DNA from: a virus
Strand: one strand, 5' to 3'
UHGV virus genome: UHGV-1366629
Length of the DNA: 40,625 nt
The first letter of the stretch is position 1. Every line of letters begins with the position of its first letter. Below are positions 2,904 through 20,918 of the stretch, piece by piece. A program made the translations under genes and the position numbers. The notes under the pieces were generated by a model. The model had not been told where the DNA came from, searched no databases, and saw only the letters and a program-made list of their open reading frames with translations.

Positions 2904-4643
2904 TTACATTGTTATACCTGTGAAGTCATTTGTTAGCTGACTATCTTGAGTTTCTACCGTACCAATCAAATAAGCTAGGAAACTTGAGAACGGGTCTGTT
3001 TTACGCCGGATAGGTTCAATCTTGTTATAACGAACCCCACGAGGTAAAATCTCTTTGAATACGTTACCACATGCCCACCTGAATAAAACTGAATTACCTA
3101 CGAATAGCTCGCCTTGTGAAAACATTCTGTCTACCATCGGGCTGACCATCGTTTCATATTTCATATTCGTAGGGTTTCGGTGAACAATATACCCTGAGTC
3201 CTCTAAAGCTTTACCTAAGACTGCTGACTTGTATTGGTCAATGTATACCTCGTTTAGTACCCAACCTTGCTCACGCATTGAATTAAACCAATTTACTACG
3301 TATTGCTCGCTGATAATCTTGTTAGGTACAACGGTCAACTCACCAATTACCTCCGCCTCTTGTAATAACTGTTCATTGATTACACCTAGATGTCGCTGTT
3401 CGTGTGTTATAAATGAATGTTGTAATGTATAAAATTCATTGTTAAAACGACCAACTATACCAACCGTTGTCAAGTCTTTACTTGTTGAAAAGTCAACTGT
3501 CCCACTTACTAACACCATACCTAATTGGTCACGATAATAGAAAATGTCACGCTTAGCCGTGTTTCTAATTTCCTCATTTGAGGCCACTTTAAAGCGGGTA
3601 TCCTCTTTCACGTAATTAAGTCGTTTTAAATGGAACTCGATGTTTAGTTCTGGGTTTACATCAATTTCCGCGACTTCCTCACGGTAGGTTTGCATTAAGT
3701 TGGGGTTATACAAAATAGTTGGGTTCGCTTTTTGCCAACCTATCTCAGTTCTATTTTCTTCCTCGCTATCTACGTGGTGCATAAATGGAAATAGTCGGCT
3801 ATGTCTTGGGTCATTAGTTGGGAAATGAACACCCCGCTCTTGAGATAGAACAGCATTACATTTCTCTTTGTAGTCATCTAATACTTTACCTCTAACATAT
3901 CCATCGGTTGAAGTGATAAATAATCTCTTGTCGGGTATCTTACCTAAACTAGACCGCATAACTTGTAAGCTAGCATAGTCGCCAATTGCGTGAATTTCAT
4001 CAAGATAAGCCGCCCCTAAACGTTGACCGTCCATTGTGTTACCGTTAGATGAAAGATACCTAAAGTCTGAATTGGTGCTACCACTTTTCATTTCTTGAAG
4101 TGTTCTAGTTGGAAACGCTTTCAATAATTTAGGGTTAGATTCAATTACTTCTTTAATATCCATGTAAGAAGTTTTGGCTTGTCGTTCTGAAGCGCTTGAA
4201 ATGGCAATGTTATACTTTCTAATGCCGTTTACCTTAGTCAATAGAGCAAAGATAACCCAACTCATAAAATAGTTCTTACCCGAACCACGTGCCATATAAA
4301 GCATATACTCATTAAATACTAACGTATCATCAGACTTAAACCTTAACCCAAAGATAACGGGCAATAGAAATTTTTCCCAAGGATATAAGTCATGAGGAAA
4401 GTATTTTTTCGGGGTATTATACGCATTCTCAGAGGCCGTTACATCTAAGTAAATATCTAAATGAAACACTACCTCGAATAGATAAACAAATAATAACTCA
4501 ATACTTTTTGAAACGTGTTGTTTACCTGAGTCTATTTCTTGTTTATATTCCTGAAACATGTGAAAGTTACTTATATCCTCAAAAGTGTCTATACATGTGT
4601 GGCTTTTTGGTAGCCAAGGAATATGATGTTCAAATTTACTCAT
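2904..4643 (-). CDS. terL: terminase large subunit
   Basis: 579 aa; Walker A-like YMARGSGKNYF; follows small terminase and HNH; typical size. Confidence 0.9.
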   Translation of the reverse strand: MSKFEHHIPWLPKSHTCIDTFEDISNFHMFQEYKQEIDSGKQHVSKSIELLFVYLFEVVFHLDIYLDVTASENAYNTPKKYFPHDLYPWEKFLLPVIFGLRFKSDDTLVFNEYMLYMARGSGKNYFMSWVIFALLTKVNGIRKYNIAISSASERQAKTSYMDIKEVIESNPKLLKAFPTRTLQEMKSGSTNSDFRYLSSNGNTMDGQRLGAAYLDEIHAIGDYASLQVMRSSLGKIPDKRLFITSTDGYVRGKVLDDYKEKCNAVLSQERGVHFPTNDPRHSRLFPFMHHVDSEEENRTEIGWQKANPTILYNPNLMQTYREEVAEIDVNPELNIEFHLKRLNYVKEDTRFKVASNEEIRNTAKRDIFYYRDQLGMVLVSGTVDFSTSKDLTTVGIVGRFNNEFYTLQHSFITHEQRHLGVINEQLLQEAEVIGELTVVPNKIISEQYVVNWFNSMREQGWVLNEVYIDQYKSAVLGKALEDSGYIVHRNPTNMKYETMVSPMVDRMFSQGELFVGNSVLFRWACGNVFKEILPRGVRYNKIEPIRRKTDPFSSFLAYLIGTVETQDSQLTNDFTGITM

Positions 4644-4957
4644 TTCACCATTGGAATATAGGTTTCAGCGATGTATAACACCGTTTCTACCTTTTCTGGT
4701 GATAAATTGAGGATATTTTGTAAATCTTGGTCAAAATTACCAGTTTTTAGAGCATTTTTTACTTGTTCTAAACTCATTTTAGCGCAACGATTGCCCCCTA
4801 CTGCTGTCCGTATATTAACGTATCTTGTATATACATCTTGCAATAAACTATTTCTTGTCATTTTGTGGGCGCTCTCGTCCTCTAATAAATGGCGAACTCT
4901 ATACTCAGTATTGTTAAGTGTCATTACTTCAGGTAGTTTAAATGTCATCGTCATCAC
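4640..4957 (-). CDS. hypothetical protein between terS and terL (true start probably internal, ~4950 or ~4918)
   Basis: 105 aa ORF, ATGA overlap with terL start; no recognisable motif. Confidence 0.4.
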   Translation of the reverse strand: MMTMTFKLPEVMTLNNTEYRVRHLLEDESAHKMTRNSLLQDVYTRYVNIRTAVGGNRCAKMSLEQVKNALKTGNFDQDLQNILNLSPEKVETVLYIAETYIPMVK

Positions 4958-5285
4958 CGTCCATAGCTTGTAATGTGTCTAATTCAATCTGAGCGATTAA
5001 TTTACTCATTCCTGAGATAGCTTGGCTTTGAATTTGAACAGCGGGGTTAGGAACTAACTTACTCAGTCCATTTGCTAGAGGTTGGTCTAGTAAAACACCA
5101 AGGGCGTTAACTTCAGCCTTAGCCGCTTTGGCCGTTTCATATAAGTCAATAATTTTATATACAATAGTTTGAGTGACGGGGTTTAGTTTGTCATTGCTTT
5201 CAAGAATGTTTTCCATTTCTCGTTGAAACTCTTCTTTACTTACTTCAATATCCCCATTAAGAATTTTTAGAGTTGGTGTACTCAT
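4938..5285 (-). CDS. terS: terminase small subunit, P27-like family
   Basis: 115 aa; C-terminal block GVLLDQPLANGLSKLVPNPAVQIQSQAISGMSKLIAQIEL resembles the P27-family terS core (NPAV motif); acidic tail; adjacent to HNH and terL. Confidence 0.65.
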   Translation of the reverse strand: MSTPTLKILNGDIEVSKEEFQREMENILESNDKLNPVTQTIVYKIIDLYETAKAAKAEVNALGVLLDQPLANGLSKLVPNPAVQIQSQAISGMSKLIAQIELDTLQAMDGDDDDI

Positions 5286-5316: not shown

Positions 5317-5327
5317 ATTATATCACA
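5317..5327 (-). promoter_or_regulatory. extended -10 TGTGATATAAT (minus strand) upstream of terS
   Basis: rc of attatatcaca; followed by ...aaggagg...ATG of terS. Confidence 0.4.
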
Positions 5328-5347
5328 TATAAGCAACCTTATTCAAC

Positions 5348-5797
5348 TTACCATGTTTCAGTACTGTCAAAATTCTCAAAGTCATCAATTGTCTGAATAT
5401 TGTTAATATTGAAAACTCGATCATGAGTTAGTTCATGGCAGTGATAACATAGGGTAACTAAGTTATTATAGTTCAAGGCCAACAATGGGAAATGTTTCAA
5501 TTCAGCGATATGGTGAACATAACCCCTTTTTTGAACAACGGTTAATGTTCCGTAGTATTTACATAATTGGCATTCGTGCTTATCTCGTTCTAATATCTCA
5601 GGTCTAACTTTCTTATACCATATGGGTAACTTATAAAAGTAGTCGGCTTGGTCGTTTGCTAATAACCAAGTTAGATACTCAAGACCTAGTTCGTCCAATC
5701 GGTCAGGACAACCCGTTGTAATTAGTTTGTCTGGTGTGGTTAGCAACTTCTTTTCTGATTCCATTACTAACGGCACGTTTTTATTTTTAAATTGCAT
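5348..5797 (-). CDS. HNH endonuclease (packaging-associated, typical of cos phages)
   Basis: CQLCKYYG...HHIAELK...NLVTLCYHCHELTHD HNH/zinc-finger motif; immediately upstream of terS. Confidence 0.85.
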   Translation of the reverse strand: MQFKNKNVPLVMESEKKLLTTPDKLITTGCPDRLDELGLEYLTWLLANDQADYFYKLPIWYKKVRPEILERDKHECQLCKYYGTLTVVQKRGYVHHIAELKHFPLLALNYNNLVTLCYHCHELTHDRVFNINNIQTIDDFENFDSTETW

Positions 5798-5940
5798 GGT
5801 AAACCTCCTTTGATTTTAATTAACGTGTAACTATTACTGTATGTTGTGTTTTGCGTGGTCTGGTATTCTATATGTTGTGGTCGCATTTTTTAATTTACGA
5901 AAGTTTTTTAGTTTTAGCTCAAAATCGTTCGTAATTCTGT

Positions 5941-6015
5941 GAAGAAAGCTTGGGGGGCGGTTCATTTGGCTTGGCGGGTGGTCGAAATTTTTGATAGGCG
6001 GGGGGAGTCGGGGCT
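5941..6015. other. GC-rich island (G-runs on plus strand) in an otherwise AT-rich 830-bp non-coding region; candidate cos / packaging initiation site
   Basis: aagcttGGGGGGCGGttcatttggcttGGCGGGTGGtcgaaatttttgataGGCGGGGGGagtCGGGGctg; sits between helicase and HNH-terS-terL, the usual cos position. Confidence 0.3.
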
Positions 6016-6170
6016 GAAATAAAATTTTACTTTTTGAAAATAATTTTTTTAAATTTTGAAATAAAAGTTTGCTACTTTTTTTATTTTTTATTTTATATAA
6101 ATTTTTATATATTGGAAATTTTTTATAAATATTTTTATTTTAATTTTTTATTTTAATATAACAATGAAGT
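6016..6170. repeat. AT-rich tract with phased T/A runs (intrinsically bent DNA candidate)
   Basis: repeated tttttatttt / aattttt motifs at roughly 10-11 bp phasing. Confidence 0.4.
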
Positions 6171-6228
6171 TACCTACCACCATACCCACCTACCCCTACC
6201 CTACCCCCTACCTATAGTACCCCACCTC
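6171..6228. repeat. C-rich (plus) / G-rich (minus) tract 1: GGGTA-type repeats with a canonical G-quadruplex motif on the minus strand
   Basis: plus cccacctacccctaccctaccccctacc; minus GGGGGTAGGGTAGGGGTAGGTGGG has four G3+ tracts with loops of 5 nt or less. Confidence 0.6.
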
Positions 6229-6476
6229 TTTAGTAGAGTAAGTTAGATACAATATGTTGTGTTTTATTCAGATAAGTTTACCAATAATTATTTAATGTTA
6301 TTTCTAATAAAATAACTGAGTGAATTAATATATAAAAGTTTATATAAATAAGTGGCTACCTATTGTCTAATATATTGTAGCTCATTCATATGTTAATTGT
6401 TGGATATTATTTAACTATTTGTTTATATTTAAATTATAACATAGGTTAGTTGTTAATGCAAACACCAGTCGTATTG

Positions 6477-6632
6477 CCCCCTATCCTACCCCATGTATCC
6501 CCATTACTTACCCCACCTATTCCCCTAACATACCCCCTACAAAATAAGAGGCATACCCTAAAGGATACACCCCTATGTTTAGATACACCACCCCACTAGT
6601 AGTATACCCATTACTCTATGTTACATATCCCC
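6477..6632. repeat. C-rich (plus) / G-rich (minus) tract 2: nine C4+ runs, the first six phased at ~11 bp, ending at the helicase stop codon
   Basis: C4-5 runs at 6477, 6489, 6499, 6511, 6522, 6533, 6570, 6591, 6629; motif (A/T)CCCC(A/T). Confidence 0.6.
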
Positions 6633-7936
6633 TATAGTAAGGACTCTAGTATCTTGTCAGTTAACTCTTTACCTTGTTGAACATACTCATGAAATACTTT
6701 ATACTCAACTGACTTATCAGCGATTAAGTGATAGTAGATAGGTTTCTTTGTCTGGCCGTGCCGATTAAGGCGACCCTTAGCTTGAATGTATGTTGAACTG
6801 CTATCACATGTACTAAAGAATATACACACATGACTAATAACAAAGTCGTTAATACCCGTTGAGGCTGACTTATATTGGGCTAACACTACACCATTATCAT
6901 TGTTCTTAAACTCGTCAAGGTTATGAGATTCACCATTGTATAAAGACCAGTTGCGGCCTACGTCAGTTAGTAACTCTATTAACATATCTTTCTCAATATT
7001 GTAATTGTAAAAGATAACTACTCGTTGATTGTTATGTTCCTCTAATATTTGAGCTGTTCGTTCTAACTTATCTTTTCTCAATGCTTTATCTATGCCAGCT
7101 AATACCCCGCTACATAATTGTAATAGTGCATGTCGTAGCATTGGCAAATTATCATACTCAACTATCTCACCACTTGGCATTTCTAATACTCTATTTTTAA
7201 GTAGCTTATTATACATTGTTGGTTTTTTGGTGTAATAAAAAATGTCCTCAGGTAAAAGACTATCGTCAATATCTCGTGCCTTAAATACTGAATGTTCTTT
7301 TAATAATTCGAGTAATTCGTTCGTGTTTTTGTAACCTACAATCGTATTAAAGTATTTAGTCTGACCCCGAACTTTCATTTCTTGTAACTCTTCAATACAG
7401 TATCTTTCTTTGAATTGTTTGAATGTTCCATTATAGACCCCCGCAATGGATAACTGATTCCATAAGTCCTCAAATTTACCATTACTAAACATTGTAGCGC
7501 TCATTAAATAAACATATCCCGCTTTTTTAGCTAACTTATTAATAAACATACCTACTTTAGATGTGGTACTTTTAACCTTGTGTGACTCGTCAATAAGAAC
7601 CATGGTGTCGCTGTCAACCCACTTCATTAACTCAACTAGTCGCCAACTGCTCTCAAAACTAATCGAAACAGCTTTAGAGCCTTTTAATAGTTCTTTATTC
7701 TTAGTTGTACCTTTATTCAGTGGTGTGACCTCTAAACCTACTTTAGCACCGTCCTCTTGAAAGTCTGGTACTTTTGAAGCTAAGCACACAATTAATAGTT
7801 TATTGAACTTACTTTCTTTAAATAAGGTAAGCCCTACGAACGTTTTCCCAACACCTACCTCACTTTGATTAATGTTTTTACCTTTTTTGCCTTGTTCCAC
7901 TTGTTCAATTTGATGTGGAAATAATTTGATACTCAT
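6632..7936 (-). CDS. SF2 DNA helicase (DEAD/SNF2-like, phage VRR-NUC-associated type)
   Basis: Q-motif FPHQ, Walker A GVGKT, DExH as LIDESH, motif III MSAT, motif V TGIN, motif VI QAKGRLNRHGQ. Confidence 0.8.
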   Translation of the reverse strand: MSIKLFPHQIEQVEQGKKGKNINQSEVGVGKTFVGLTLFKESKFNKLLIVCLASKVPDFQEDGAKVGLEVTPLNKGTTKNKELLKGSKAVSISFESSWRLVELMKWVDSDTMVLIDESHKVKSTTSKVGMFINKLAKKAGYVYLMSATMFSNGKFEDLWNQLSIAGVYNGTFKQFKERYCIEELQEMKVRGQTKYFNTIVGYKNTNELLELLKEHSVFKARDIDDSLLPEDIFYYTKKPTMYNKLLKNRVLEMPSGEIVEYDNLPMLRHALLQLCSGVLAGIDKALRKDKLERTAQILEEHNNQRVVIFYNYNIEKDMLIELLTDVGRNWSLYNGESHNLDEFKNNDNGVVLAQYKSASTGINDFVISHVCIFFSTCDSSSTYIQAKGRLNRHGQTKKPIYYHLIADKSVEYKVFHEYVQQGKELTDKILESLL

Positions 7937-8056: not shown

Positions 8057-8410
8057 TTAGTCAAAGATAATTCCGATGTCAGGACTCAAGTCAGGTAATT
8101 TAGGTTGTTTATAGTTTTTTAATTGGTCATTATCTATATAATACAACAAATTTTGCAATTCGTCAAGTGTATCTCTTAAAATAATACCGATACCACCATT
8201 ATCTCTAACTTTTTGTAAATATCTAATTTGTAAGTCAGTTGGTTGGTAGTTTCCTGTTTTTAATTCAAGGGCAATGAAAACCCCTTTATATAGTACTGTT
8301 AAATCAGAACGACCAACTCTAGCAAAAATACTAGCTGTGTTATTATCCACTAAAGCACCAACGCTTTTCAGATAATCGGTTACTTTTTGTGAATATTTAT
8401 TTTCTTTCAT
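8057..8410 (-). CDS. VRR-NUC domain nuclease (PD-(D/E)xK fold)
   Basis: GRSDLTVLYKGVFIALELK matches VRR-NUC D...ExK core; paired with SF2 helicase as commonly seen in phages. Confidence 0.7.
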   Translation of the reverse strand: MKENKYSQKVTDYLKSVGALVDNNTASIFARVGRSDLTVLYKGVFIALELKTGNYQPTDLQIRYLQKVRDNGGIGIILRDTLDELQNLLYYIDNDQLKNYKQPKLPDLSPDIGIIFD

Positions 8411-8424
8411 GTATTTACCCCCTT

Positions 8425-8438
8425 TACTCTATTATATC
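8425..8438 (-). promoter_or_regulatory. leftward promoter (extended -10 TGATATAAT) for VRR-NUC/helicase/late unit
   Basis: rc of ctctattatatcat = atgaTATAATagag, about 15 nt upstream of RBS aaggggg and ATG 8410. Confidence 0.45.
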
Positions 8439-8571
8439 ATATTTTTGAGTCAAATTACCAGTTTCCCAAAAAGTTGGGACAGCCTCAGCCTTAGAGCCAT
8501 AAGGGTTTTTAGCACTTGTTCTCAAAAAGACCAAGTTTTCTATAAAACTATTCTTTTTCTATATAAGATAG

Positions 8572-8588
8572 TGACACTGTACTTGCCA
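8572..8588 (+). promoter_or_regulatory. operator-like motif copy 1 TGACACTGTACTTGCCA
   Basis: shares consensus TGACAMNNNACTTGCCA with copies at 8766 and 8822. Confidence 0.4.
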
Positions 8589-8765
8589 GAGTAGGTAATA
8601 ATAATATTTATATATATATTATATAAAAATATTGGGAATTAGGGAATGTTGGTATTTTTCCTTTAGTATCAAGGTTTTGACTATCCCCAAAAACTGAAAA
8701 AAAGTTGAGCGAAACCCAAAAATTTTTGAGAAAACGAGTAAAAACAACGATTTTAGCGATAATTG

Positions 8766-8782
8766 TGACAAAAAACTTGCCA
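8766..8782 (+). promoter_or_regulatory. operator-like motif copy 2 TGACAAAAAACTTGCCA, flanked by additional TGACAAA half-sites at 8791 and 8803
   Basis: direct repeats seen in sequence. Confidence 0.4.
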
Positions 8783-8820
8783 TTAAAACATGACAAATAA
8801 ACTGACAAAAAATTAAAAAC

Positions 8821-8850
8821 TTGACACACGACTTGCCACTATGTTATAGT
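8821..8850 (+). promoter_or_regulatory. early rightward promoter TTGACA-18-TATAGT overlapping operator-like motif copy 3 (8822-8838)
   Basis: ttgacacacgacttgccactatgttatagt, 35 nt upstream of ATG 8885. Confidence 0.6.
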
Positions 8851-8884
8851 TAACTCATACCAAAAAAGAAAGGAAGTTTTACGA

Positions 8885-9085
8885 ATGAAATTATATTTAA
8901 TTGAAAAAGTACCATTAAAGAAAGGTACAGAAATTATTTTGGCCGATGTGGTACAAGACTTAAAAGGAGCATGTACAATGCTTGGTGTTTCTGAGCGTAC
9001 ATTTTACAGACATTTAGAAAAAGGCGAGTCAAAAGGCTACAAAATAAGTAATATGAAACCACAAGTCATTAGAGTATATAAATAG
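8885..9085 (+). CDS. small helix-turn-helix DNA-binding protein (excisionase/AlpA-like HTH), first gene of early operon
   Basis: 66 aa; LKGACTMLGVSERTFYRHLEKG HTH signature; RBS gaaaggaag. Confidence 0.55.
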   Translation: MKLYLIEKVPLKKGTEIILADVVQDLKGACTMLGVSERTFYRHLEKGESKGYKISNMKPQVIRVYK

Positions 9086-9100
9086 AAAGGAAGACACCCA

Positions 9101-10861
9101 TTGGAAAAATTTGACAACCCACTAGACGAGTTTACAACTGAAGTTGAAGTAATGAGCGCTGAAGAAATGGAAAAATTTAGAGAAAAACTCAGAAACGAAC
9201 AATCACAACTATTATCAACCGAACCAATTGAAATACCCGAACATTTAGAACAAGAGGGCGAGAAACAACTTGCTGAATACGAATATAATCGAAGTCATTT
9301 AACAGTAAATATTTTAGACTATCACAGTCCTGAATACCCTGAACAACTATTTAAAGACTTAAAACGAACGGGAATTATTAAATATAATGAAAATAAAAAA
9401 ACAGGTGAATTACTACCTTATATTGATGACGTATCGTTACTAGGTCAAATGATAGCTGAACAAGGCCATTTAATGTATAATGACGAAACAGGACTGGTTA
9501 TTTACGAACCTGAAAATCTAATATGGAAAATTGACAAGAAAGCAATTGAGAAATTAGTAACGGGTGCAATTGTCAACCCATTATTAAGAGCCGTTAAAAT
9601 ACCAATCAAGCAACAAAACGAACTAATTACGGCCATTGAGCGACAAGTTACCTATGTTACACCAAGCGAAAACCCTTTTGTAGGCCAACGTGAATATATT
9701 ATTCCATTTACTAAAACATTTAACGTACACACAAATGAATTTCAAGAGGCCAAAGGCGATGACTATGTTTTGGGAAGACTGAAACACACACCTATTAAAT
9801 ATGACCTAAGCGAAAAACAACCCTTTGAGGACTGGTTAGAGTTCTTGTTAGGTGACAGTAAACGAACATTTTTAGAATTTTTAGGACTATCATTCTTTAA
9901 TAAGGCAAGTCTTTCTCAATCGGCATTAGTATCGGTAGGGAACACTTTACAAGGCATTAGTGACCATGGGAACGGAAAATCTGAGGTTCAATTAGTGGTA
10001 AAACGCTGTTTTGAAACAATCGGAAAAGACTTACAAGCCGAGGTATCACTTGCAGACATTACTAGTCAAAGTCCTGAAACAAAACTAATGCCTTTAGTAG
10101 GTGCTTTAGTGAACTTTGATGATGATGTTAAAACGAACTATTTAGAAAACATTGAGTCACTTAAAAAATTAATCACTGGTCAAGCTCAACAAAAAGCCCG
10201 TAACTTATACAGCGATGGCATGATGTTCCAGAACAAAGCGAACTTTTGGTTAAATGCTAACCAATTACCCCAACTAAGTTCACGAGATGGAGCAACCGAG
10301 CGGCGATTAGATTTGTTGGTATTTCAGAACAATATGAGAGATGTGGAAAATCAAAAAAAATCACTTGAAATTTACGACTACAAAGAGAAATTACTAGGCA
10401 AAGATGACACTGACATACGTAAATTAATTTATTTAGCCATTCAAACAGCTCGTAATAAGTGGTATGATGAAACAAAAGGCCATTTCAACCAAAATCAGTT
10501 ATATCAATCAGAAACAGCGTTACGACTAAAAGGCGAATGGCAAACAGAAAACAACCCAGTAAAACAGTTCTTAAACGATAGCGATTATATTATGACGAAT
10601 AACGAAAGCGATTTTGTAAACCGTAGTGACTTATATAATGACTTTAAAGAATGGTGGGCGGAAAACAACTCGGCTAAAGTATTGAAACACGCTTCATTTA
10701 GAAAACTGGTTTATCATGAACTAGAATTGAAGCAAGTAAAAGGTAGATTGAACAATGGCGACATTGAGAAAAAACACCAACTAGGCAAAGTACGAGTATT
10801 TTATGGAATCAAACATTTAGAAAACGGCATACCTGAATCAGATAAAGAACTACCATTTTAA
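9101..10861 (+). CDS. replicative helicase, phage/plasmid primase P4-family C-terminal / D5-like SF3 helicase domain (TTG start)
   Basis: P-loop ISDHGNGKSE; downstream block KKLITGQAQQKARNLYSDGMMFQNKANFWLNANQLPQLSSRDGATERRLDLLVF resembles the P4-family primase C-terminal motif (lTGgD.i.ar...N.lP...D.a..RR..iipF). Confidence 0.7.
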   Translation: MEKFDNPLDEFTTEVEVMSAEEMEKFREKLRNEQSQLLSTEPIEIPEHLEQEGEKQLAEYEYNRSHLTVNILDYHSPEYPEQLFKDLKRTGIIKYNENKKTGELLPYIDDVSLLGQMIAEQGHLMYNDETGLVIYEPENLIWKIDKKAIEKLVTGAIVNPLLRAVKIPIKQQNELITAIERQVTYVTPSENPFVGQREYIIPFTKTFNVHTNEFQEAKGDDYVLGRLKHTPIKYDLSEKQPFEDWLEFLLGDSKRTFLEFLGLSFFNKASLSQSALVSVGNTLQGISDHGNGKSEVQLVVKRCFETIGKDLQAEVSLADITSQSPETKLMPLVGALVNFDDDVKTNYLENIESLKKLITGQAQQKARNLYSDGMMFQNKANFWLNANQLPQLSSRDGATERRLDLLVFQNNMRDVENQKKSLEIYDYKEKLLGKDDTDIRKLIYLAIQTARNKWYDETKGHFNQNQLYQSETALRLKGEWQTENNPVKQFLNDSDYIMTNNESDFVNRSDLYNDFKEWWAENNSAKVLKHASFRKLVYHELELKQVKGRLNNGDIEKKHQLGKVRVFYGIKHLENGIPESDKELPF

Positions 10862-19951: not shown

Positions 19952-20119
19952 ATGAGATTTGCAAAATTTAGTTTGAGTTTAGTGATTGGTTTGATTATTC
20001 TAGTGTCGTTTATGATTGCAATGTTGAAAGTGTTTGCTGTTCCAATTATTGTAATATTGATTGCAGTTGGTGCTTTCGTACTAGTTCAAAAAGGGAATGA
20101 TGACAATGGAAAAGAGTAA
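19952..20119 (+). CDS. small membrane protein (55 aa, 2 predicted TM), not in the ORF track
   Basis: RBS agaaagagg; MRFAKFSLSLVIGLIILVSFMIAMLKVFAVPIIVILIAVGAFVLVQKGNDDNGKE. Confidence 0.5.
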   Translation: MRFAKFSLSLVIGLIILVSFMIAMLKVFAVPIIVILIAVGAFVLVQKGNDDNGKE

Positions 20120-20918
20120 AATTGTTCAGTATTATAAACAAGGTATTGCATTAAGAAGACTTACAAAAATGGGTAAAGTACCAGCTTACAAGGGTAATTT
20201 TAAGCAAGGCGACTCATTAAGTGACTTATTGAAATGGGACGGTAACATAGCTATCCTAACTGGTAAAGTGAGCGGTTTAGTATGTATTGACGTAGATAGA
20301 CACACAACAAAAAATGGAGATGTAATTGATGGGGTAGTTTCATTGCGTGATTTTATGAAAAACAATGGCTTGAAATTACCTCAAACAAGAGTAGTAAAAA
20401 GCCCTAACGATGGGTTACACTATTACTATAAATTACCTGAAACATATTTCAATACTAAATTCAAGCCAAAATCTGACTTAATTAAAGGCGTTGACTTTAG
20501 AAACCATGGTCAATTTATGGTGGCCGAGGATAGCATTATTCCTAACGAAAACGGTGAAAAAACTTATTACATGGTTGTAAAAGATATTCCATTTAGTGAG
20601 ATTCCTGAAGTGCCTGAGTGGGTTATTGAGTTATACTCCAAAGGTGAAGACGAGGGTAAGGAAAACGACCAAGTTATGACCTTTATTGCTACTAAAATGA
20701 ATGAGTGGACGAAAGGGGCGCCTGAGGGTAATAGAAACAACTGGTTAACTGCTCAAGTGGGTTTTCTAATCGGTCAAAGGTTACCTATTAACAAAGTGGC
20801 TATATGGGCTAATGTGATTAATAATAATTTCATTCACCCAAAATTAGACCAAGAAGAAGTAAATGCAATGATTAATTCTCTTTATAATAGTGAAAAATAT
20901 AAAAGAAAAGGTGAGTAA
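20097..20918 (+). CDS. DNA primase, bifunctional primase-polymerase (Prim-Pol) N-terminal domain type (start 20097, 20100 or 20106)
   Basis: NIAILTGKVSGLVCIDVDRH ... SPNDGLHYYY signature of Prim-Pol domain. Confidence 0.7.
   Translation: MMTMEKSKIVQYYKQGIALRRLTKMGKVPAYKGNFKQGDSLSDLLKWDGNIAILTGKVSGLVCIDVDRHTTKNGDVIDGVVSLRDFMKNNGLKLPQTRVVKSPNDGLHYYYKLPETYFNTKFKPKSDLIKGVDFRNHGQFMVAEDSIIPNENGEKTYYMVVKDIPFSEIPEVPEWVIELYSKGEDEGKENDQVMTFIATKMNEWTKGAPEGNRNNWLTAQVGFLIGQRLPINKVAIWANVINNNFIHPKLDQEEVNAMINSLYNSEKYKRKGE

Follow-up and report, generated by a model that had tools for sequence, protein, structure and literature searches.

A conserved GC-rich island and strand-polar GGGGTA arrays in the probable cos region of a lytic Enterococcus siphophage

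In phage HK97 the gene for the HNH endonuclease is the last in the genome, and the cohesive-end site (cos) separates it from terS, the gene for the small terminase. In SPP1, which packages by the headful mechanism, the small terminase binds repeated boxes on either side of the cut in the packaging site, pac (pacL-pacC-pacR). Here we compare sites of this kind with the non-coding gap between the helicase and HNH genes of the virus genome UHGV-1366629, analysed as one stretch of 40,625 nucleotides (the window). This gap most likely holds the packaging cut of the phage, with an ordinary kind of element at its core. Among the described systems, the HK97 small terminase binds a single 15-bp site, +15 to +29, on the terminase-gene side of the cut (PMC11331095), and IME-EF4 and IME-EFm1, two Enterococcus phages, carry 9-nt 3' cohesive ends (PMC4445525). 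In Skunavirus the HNH gene lies between terL (the large terminase gene) and the portal gene (PMC12967558), and the HNH-terS position is therefore typical, though not strictly defining, of the cos family.

In Ec-ZZ2 and IME-EFm5 the mapped ends were located between HNH and terS, the HNH stop codon lying 60-90 bp before them, and in IME-EF4 and EFm5 the mapped cut falls exactly 22 nt past a C7 or C6 run, which itself comes after a T tract and G motifs. On the minus strand of the window the genes run in the order helicase, gap, HNH, P27-type terS, small open reading frame (ORF), terL, portal and ClpP-type protease, with the HNH, P27-type terS and TerL module (assigned by Pfam) directly downstream of the gap, which measures 834 non-coding bp (5798-6631). 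An earlier reading of the window, made from the sequence alone (the sequence-only reading), had described a non-coding gap in this setting and proposed a cos or packaging region in it; both the gap and its gene context were as described. It had also called the order helicase, cos, HNH the classic one, which was incorrect, as the mapped cos of IME-EF4-like and IME-EFm1-like phages sits between HNH and terS.

Judged from its sequence, the gap is very probably the packaging (cos) region, with a GC-rich island as its core. We consider it probable, though well short of assured, that this would be the cos region of a siphophage whose packaging relies on an HNH endonuclease together with small (P27-type) and large terminases. 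With much the same confidence we would place cosN at about 5962-5978, a prediction drawn from contig starts, the distance to a C run and a variable 12-mer, and uncertain by about +/-20 nt. Three lines of evidence put cosN in the island: the constraint on the sequence, the clustering of contig ends, and a geometry shared with the mapped Enterococcus cos sites. These, and not the argument of the sequence-only reading, are what make a packaging region in the gap very probable.

The GC island occupies 5941-6015. At 58.7% its GC content is the highest of any 75 nt in the window (35.0% GC overall), in line with the island of ~60% GC that had been proposed there. The window's only two G6 runs both lie in it, and its gene-sense strand is C-rich. 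Its parts are C run 1 (5999-6007), an A5 tract, a lineage-variable 12-mer, the element TGAACC-C6 (5952-5964) and TCTTCACA (5938-5945). The adjoining 6015-6164 has 7.3% GC, the lowest 150-nt value of the window, and in this A/T-rich block (6016-6165) it is the sequence that is conserved and not composition alone, a 22-nt stretch being identical in the related contig L002. Further toward the helicase lie a first array of G runs (array 1, 6171-6228, minus strand), an AT-rich spacer of 21.8% GC (6229-6476) that evolves about as fast as the flanking genes, and a second array (array 2, 6477-6634, minus strand). For the AT-rich DNA the sequence-only reading had claimed phased T-tracts. The low GC content and the abundance of A/T tracts stood, but the phasing was weak and not significant: the power at 9.5-11.5 bp was equalled by 35 of 500 shuffles and the strongest period was 6 nt, so that bent DNA was not shown.

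Compared with Rfam, the gap gave no match at E <= 1, and it folded no better than shuffled sequence (z of +0.2 and -0.3). A structured RNA, or a long-range pairing between G array and C island, was rejected because the folds do pair the two, but not above shuffled sequence. Also rejected were three small ORFs in the gap (5834-5965, 6034-6156 and 6450-6599), which are not kept as genes in relatives, their stop positions differing in L002 and L070.

The sequence of the window is the genome of a lytic Enterococcus siphophage in circularly permuted form. Across the packaging region it is 92-95% identical to Enterococcus cecorum phage vB_CECAV_A40 (PV173149; A40 below), and an ENA contig of 40,724 nt (40,625 + 99) is 100% identical to it where compared. 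Window positions 1 and 40625 both fall within coding sequence, in the major head protein region; together with the length of the ENA contig, this indicates a complete circular assembly that was opened at an arbitrary point.

Relatives were gathered via helicase homologues in a large protein collection, and two further contigs came from IMG/VR. About ten related phage contigs share the layout of the gap (A40, L002, L070, L071/72, L074, L076, L078, L079/80, L086, L088-L094 and L102), which in each case is preceded by a helicase homologue, of 52-95% identity. In the gene sense the shared order is helicase, one or two GGGGTA-type arrays, AT-rich DNA, C-run island and HNH-terS-terL, and the relatives' islands hold two to four C6-C7 runs. 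The recurrence of this layout, with strict motif polarity, marks it as a conserved lineage feature and not a chance pattern. When the island was compared by BLAST with 50,697 phage records, the sole match was A40. A search of IMG/VR with the pattern CCCCGASTCCCCCCGC gave 35 matches, and of the four examined one was a relative (the L002 contig) and three were GC-rich and unrelated. Neither 185,579 bacterial genomes nor the JGI metagenomes gave a match to a 23-base conserved island pattern, and helicase-based scans of these two collections also found none, so that no prophage or satellite copy was found in the collections searched.

The pattern of conservation singled out part of the gap. Among 11 close relatives (92-100% identical), only 13 of 276 columns (4.7%) were variable in the segment 5895-6170, against 11-23% in the flanking genes. 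Third codon positions varied in 50% of columns in the helicase gene and 26% in HNH; array 2 (23%), the spacer 6229-6476 (22%) and array 1 (17%) were also variable, and the figures for the island at 5941-6015 and the A-rich block at 6016-6170 were 5.3% and 5.2%. The most conserved stretch of the locus was 5895-5940, with one variable column in 46 (2.2%). This low variability identifies the 276-bp block as the core functional element; it is more constrained than the neighbouring DNA and is kept across relatives. TGAACC and TTCAC showed no change in all seven aligned relatives, and together with the C runs they persist in relatives whose helicase identity is as low as 65%. Between the window, L002 and L070 the island differs only in the 12 nt at the predicted cut, where both length and flanks (ACC and TGAACC) are kept.

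Contig ends fell in the same place. Two contigs of the window lineage, L097 and L098, from independent samples of unrelated projects, start at 5978 and 5976, which is 21-23 nt past C run 1. L079 and L080, from different samples and assembled with different k-mer sizes, end 1 nt apart, 14 nt past the second C run. One end of L076 falls within the island, as do the starts of L082 and L083, and L081 starts 56 nt ahead of it. As a proxy for fixed ends, contig ends are thus found at 5976/5978 and in the relatives' islands, with compositional extremes as a confounding factor. In one clade (L081-L084) the C-run island is separated from the packaging genes by an inserted NUMOD4/HNH_3 homing-endonuclease gene (L081 643-1125; L082 568-1050; L083 530-1012; L084 409-891).

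The geometry resembles that of the IME-EF4/IME-EFm1-type sites. In both, the HNH and terminase genes lie beside the site, a T/A tract is nearby and GGGGT-type motifs lie upstream, and the 21-23 nt between the C6 run and the contig starts of the window lineage compare with the 22 nt between the C7 or C6 run and the cut in IME-EF4 and EFm5. The IME-EF4-type phages carry three G motifs in the 110 nt before the mapped right end, whereas in the window such motifs are expanded to arrays of 5 and 11; Ec-ZZ2 is without a motif cluster. The described sites also lie between HNH and terS, in about 150 bp, whereas that of the window would lie upstream of HNH in about 830 bp. With HK97 and lambda the window shares packaging proteins of the same kind and a conserved segment that lies on the terminase-gene side, no more than about 40 bp from the cut (predicted in the window); we know of no long repeat arrays described on the cosQ side of either. 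A more distant likeness is to herpesvirus pac1, in which a T-rich core stands between G and C tracts: here too an A/T-rich core, with one tract rich in G and one rich in C, stands beside the (here predicted) terminase cleavage site. However, pac1 belongs to a eukaryotic virus and spans about 30 bp against about 450 bp in the window, and there is no detectable homology.

From these data we infer a cut position, a packaging direction, a small-terminase site and a possible role for the arrays. On the model of lambda and HK97, assembly of the terminase would take place beside the cut, on the side of the terminase genes, where 5895-5961 is a candidate cosB-like segment on the strength of its conservation, TGAACCGCCCCCC, TCTTCACA and a 17-nt inverted repeat (arms 5895-5911 and 5918-5934). 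With TGAACC-C6...TTCACA and the inverted repeat, this segment is a likely docking site for the small terminase. The terminase would nick the concatemer within the GC island at about 5962-5978, and packaging would run from 5895-5961 toward HNH-terS-terL. C run 1, the conserved A-rich block of 7% GC and the arrays would form the last-packaged end, met by the motor before cutting; C run 1 and the block would probably help the motor to recognise and cut cos at termination. The arrays, 195-655 bp from the predicted right end, would most likely be bound by a protein that works with this end of the chromosome, when packaging terminates or when the end is handled.

A cos site at this position would show how these poorly studied poultry and gut Enterococcus phages, which are candidates for use against E. 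cecorum, package their DNA, and where to open their genomes for annotation. It would also define the fragment needed by a cosmid-like vector or a hijacking satellite, and the arrangement would mean that cos may have the packaging HNH gene to either side.

The usual position for such a site, between HNH and terS, was considered and rejected. This spacer measures 62 bp, and conserved in it are only a promoter and a ribosome-binding site, so that cos is not there and the candidate lies upstream of HNH. The promoter is of the extended -10 type (5317-5346, minus strand; found by consensus scan), and its TGnTATAAT is kept in nine relatives. In L074 and L078 a terminator hairpin lies just ahead of this promoter, and these two features suggest that terS and terL may be transcribed apart from HNH.

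The unusual part of the gap is the pair of conserved, polar GGGGTA arrays, which are absent from any described cos site. Two arrays of C runs, the second with six runs every ~11 bp, had been noted in the sequence-only reading, and these were confirmed. Array 1 has five motifs, tightly packed with a spacing of 5-16 nt. In array 2 the gene-sense strand carries 11 G runs of (A/T)(A/T)GGGGTA(T) type, six of which (6477-6537) are spaced 12, 10, 12, 11 and 11 nt. The window has 72 runs of at least four C, and 12 of them lie in the gap, which makes up 2% of the sequence and would be expected to contain about 1.5 (Poisson P about 5e-8 by our own arithmetic). In the gap, GGGT[AG] forms minus-strand clusters of up to 7 and 5 per 160 nt; elsewhere the figure is <=2, and in 200 shuffles <=4.

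Across the relatives, gene-sense G runs are followed by T in 80% of 107 instances and then by A in 58%, giving the core motif (A/T)(A/T)GGGGTA(T), and over eight loci the motif occurs 77 times in the sense and 12 times in the antisense orientation. Array 1 is strongly conserved in L002 and L070. In the 11 close relatives, variability in its G run and TA positions is 3.4%, compared with 31% in the stretches between motifs, and the corresponding values for array 2 are 15% and 28%. Motif positions that are conserved amid intervening ones that are not are the signature of repeated recognition sites, and on this evidence the arrays are selected, strand-polar, sequence-specific repeats that probably serve as protein sites. 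With regard to R-sites, they lie 195-655 bp away on the opposite side of the predicted cut from lambda cosB and the HK97 site. That small-terminase sites can lie on the 'wrong' side has a precedent in SPP1: there too short boxes stand upstream of the cleavage point with AT-rich DNA between, but the TerS is of another family, the boxes are few and strand-polar G-rich arrays are lacking. Should termination or end protection prove to be their role, the arrays would add a new accessory element to phage packaging. One 42,534-nt contig, L095, fuses unrelated sequence to the phage inside array 1 (L095 1-80, at ...GGTGGGTAACTTC), a junction for which misassembly at the G-rich repeats is the probable cause.

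Array 1 contains GGGGGTAGGGTAGGGGTAGGTGGG (6185-6208, minus strand), which has four runs of at least 3 G with loops of 1-7 nt. As the sequence-only reading had it, this is a canonical G-quadruplex (G4) motif, and it is the only one in the 40.6 kb window; the G4Hunter scoring proposed in that reading gave 2.32 over 6172-6229. The motif is present in the window, A40, L002, L070 and L071, and absent from L074, L076, L078 and L079 (four of nine relatives), where the motifs are 15-20 nt apart. What is conserved across the family is not the G4 motif but the T-A that follows the G run, and a base-specific reading of the arrays thus fits better than a bare G4.

A number of points weigh against a cos site in the island. 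The position of cosN is based on assembled contigs, and homopolymer runs and DNA of 7% GC can also create contig ends. The starts of L081-L084 differ by 38-121 nt and are spread over about 230 nt; L097 probably comes from a circular assembly path, which could have been opened at an arbitrary point. The start of the A40 GenBank record is at a different place, about window 8443-8766, and the mapped cos of HK97 and the Enterococcus phages lies between HNH and terS, not upstream of HNH. Because the Efquatrovirus terminases are very distant (TerL 21% identical, TerS with no similarity), the geometric parallel could be a coincidence. In local alignments the window island showed no significant similarity to the cos flanks of EF4 and EFm5 (z = -0.4 and 0.6), and the only significant DNA similarity to these flanks, that of L079 to EF4 (z = 4.9), was low-complexity. 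No protein partner for the arrays was identified.

Of the other readings, the one that survives best is compatible with a cos in the island, and we judge it unlikely. It takes the gap for a transcription boundary, in which array 2 would carry the terminator of the early/middle helicase operon together with upstream activator sites for a late promoter (6433-6462) driving HNH and the packaging genes, the arrays being regulator-binding sites, and a precedent is lactococcal phage TP901-1, which has repeats upstream of its late promoter. A terminator-like hairpin with a T tract lies within array 2 (6537-6574, minus strand) and might mark the end of the helicase transcript. Between the arrays, a promoter-like TTTGCA-18-TATAAT with a TG extension (6433-6462, minus strand) reads toward the island and HNH and is kept in close relatives. 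Both were found as consensus matches only, and array 1 lies about 200 nt downstream of the promoter-like site. A similar promoter was not evident after the single array of L074 or L079, and no late regulator was detected by Pfam among 29 ORFs, with ArpU-, RinA- and Alt-like proteins as the candidates.

It is rather unlikely that the compositional extremes of the gap do no more than break assemblies, with cos or pac elsewhere, for example near the A40 ends at about 8450-8770. A40 was deposited as a linear record that starts in the divergent early region, homopolymers and 7% GC DNA are known causes of coverage loss, and the starts of the L081-L084 contigs are scattered. Yet two independent contig pairs break within 1-2 nt, which a diffuse coverage dip would not predict. 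The block 5895-6170 is more constrained than genes, and cos phages typically carry HNH-terS-terL modules. Near 8450-8770 no end was seen among the contigs examined, and the A40 record ends (about 8443-8766), being without support from any metagenomic contig end, were rejected as termini. The early region in which that record starts and ends (8410-9100) is divergent, with leftward and rightward operons; the window and A40 are non-homologous there over about 320 nt, and tandem repeats occur at 8604-8625 and 8786-8809.

On anatomy alone the most serious rival for the arrays is a replication origin, in which they would be initiator iterons and the GC island a boundary clamp, with cos elsewhere. 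The iteron origins of SaPIs and phage P4 are bound by D5/primase-helicase initiators. As in those origins, two sets of short direct repeats flank AT-rich DNA in the window (the 21.8% GC spacer, with the 7.3% GC block beside it). A 22-nt period runs through part of array 2, a helicase gene precedes the gap, and among the phage's proteins are a D5/DUF5906 primase-helicase and a Prim-Pol. Unlike SaPI and P4 repeats, however, those of the window neither co-vary with the D5-type protein nor adjoin its gene. In a second subfamily of the relatives (L071, L074, L076, L078 and L079) the D5-type protein is only about 24% identical and the GGGGTA motif is unchanged, whereas helicase, HNH, terS and terL are 33-64% identical between the two subfamilies; the arrays do not track the replication protein. 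Ec-ZZ2, with a homologous helicase in another genomic context, has no such array. The arrays evolve about as fast as genes, the constrained part being the island and the A-rich block, and contig ends cluster in the island, all of which makes an origin here decidedly unlikely.

The second-subfamily phages have extra repeats of their own. Many copies of (A/T)TTCACAA(G/T)C and ATGCAT(A) flank their G array and island (L071 6280-6460 and 7180-7370; L074 6280-6460 and 7040-7440; also L076, L078, L079 and L102), and these are absent from the window lineage save for one invariant TTCAC at 5938-5945. As they occur only in phages with the other D5-type protein, these repeats could be its iterons or operator sites. 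Relative to L071, L074, L076, L078 and L079, a boundary of module exchange lies between the D5/DUF5906 gene (window 9101-10861) and the helicase and packaging genes.

A more adventurous proposal makes the arrays a polar 'chromosome-end' element that would slow or stop the packaging motor for the cos cut, or shield the entering end from the host's RexAB/AddAB. Such an element would have no described phage counterpart, and we hold this version to be distinctly doubtful. Still less probable is end protection in the narrower sense, by Chi-like signals for AddAB/RexAB or a telomere-like G4 formed once the end is resected. The strict polarity (77:12), the variable spacing around a conserved core and the G motifs before the right end of IME-EF4-type phages are in its favour, as is the orientation: the G-rich strand would end 3' at the predicted right terminus, last packaged and first ejected, a polarity that matches both the requirement of Chi-like signals and telomeres. 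Against it, GGGGTA differs from the known Firmicute Chi sequences (AGCGG, GCGCGTG and GAAGCGG), its copies are degenerate where Chi needs near-exact matches, there is no genome-wide enrichment (GGGGTA occurs 7 vs 7 times on the two strands outside the gap), and the G4 motif is missing in four relatives.

The genes around the gap all lie on the minus strand. The SNF2/DEAD-type helicase gene (6632-7936; Pfam Helicase_C and DEAD) forms the upstream flank. The packaging-type HNH endonuclease gene (5348-5797; Pfam HNH) encodes a protein with relatives in cos phages of Staphylococcus, Streptococcus and Listeria. It is followed by terS (4938-5285; Terminase_4, or P27 type, by Pfam), the small ORF between terS and terL (4640-4957) and terL (2904-4643; Pfam TerL_ATPase and TerL_nuclease).

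I-HmuI-like NUMOD genes were seen near the D5 gene in L076 and L079. Besides the D5-type primase-helicase, the window encodes a Prim-Pol/PriCT_1 protein (20097-20918, plus strand), giving the phage two primase-type genes.

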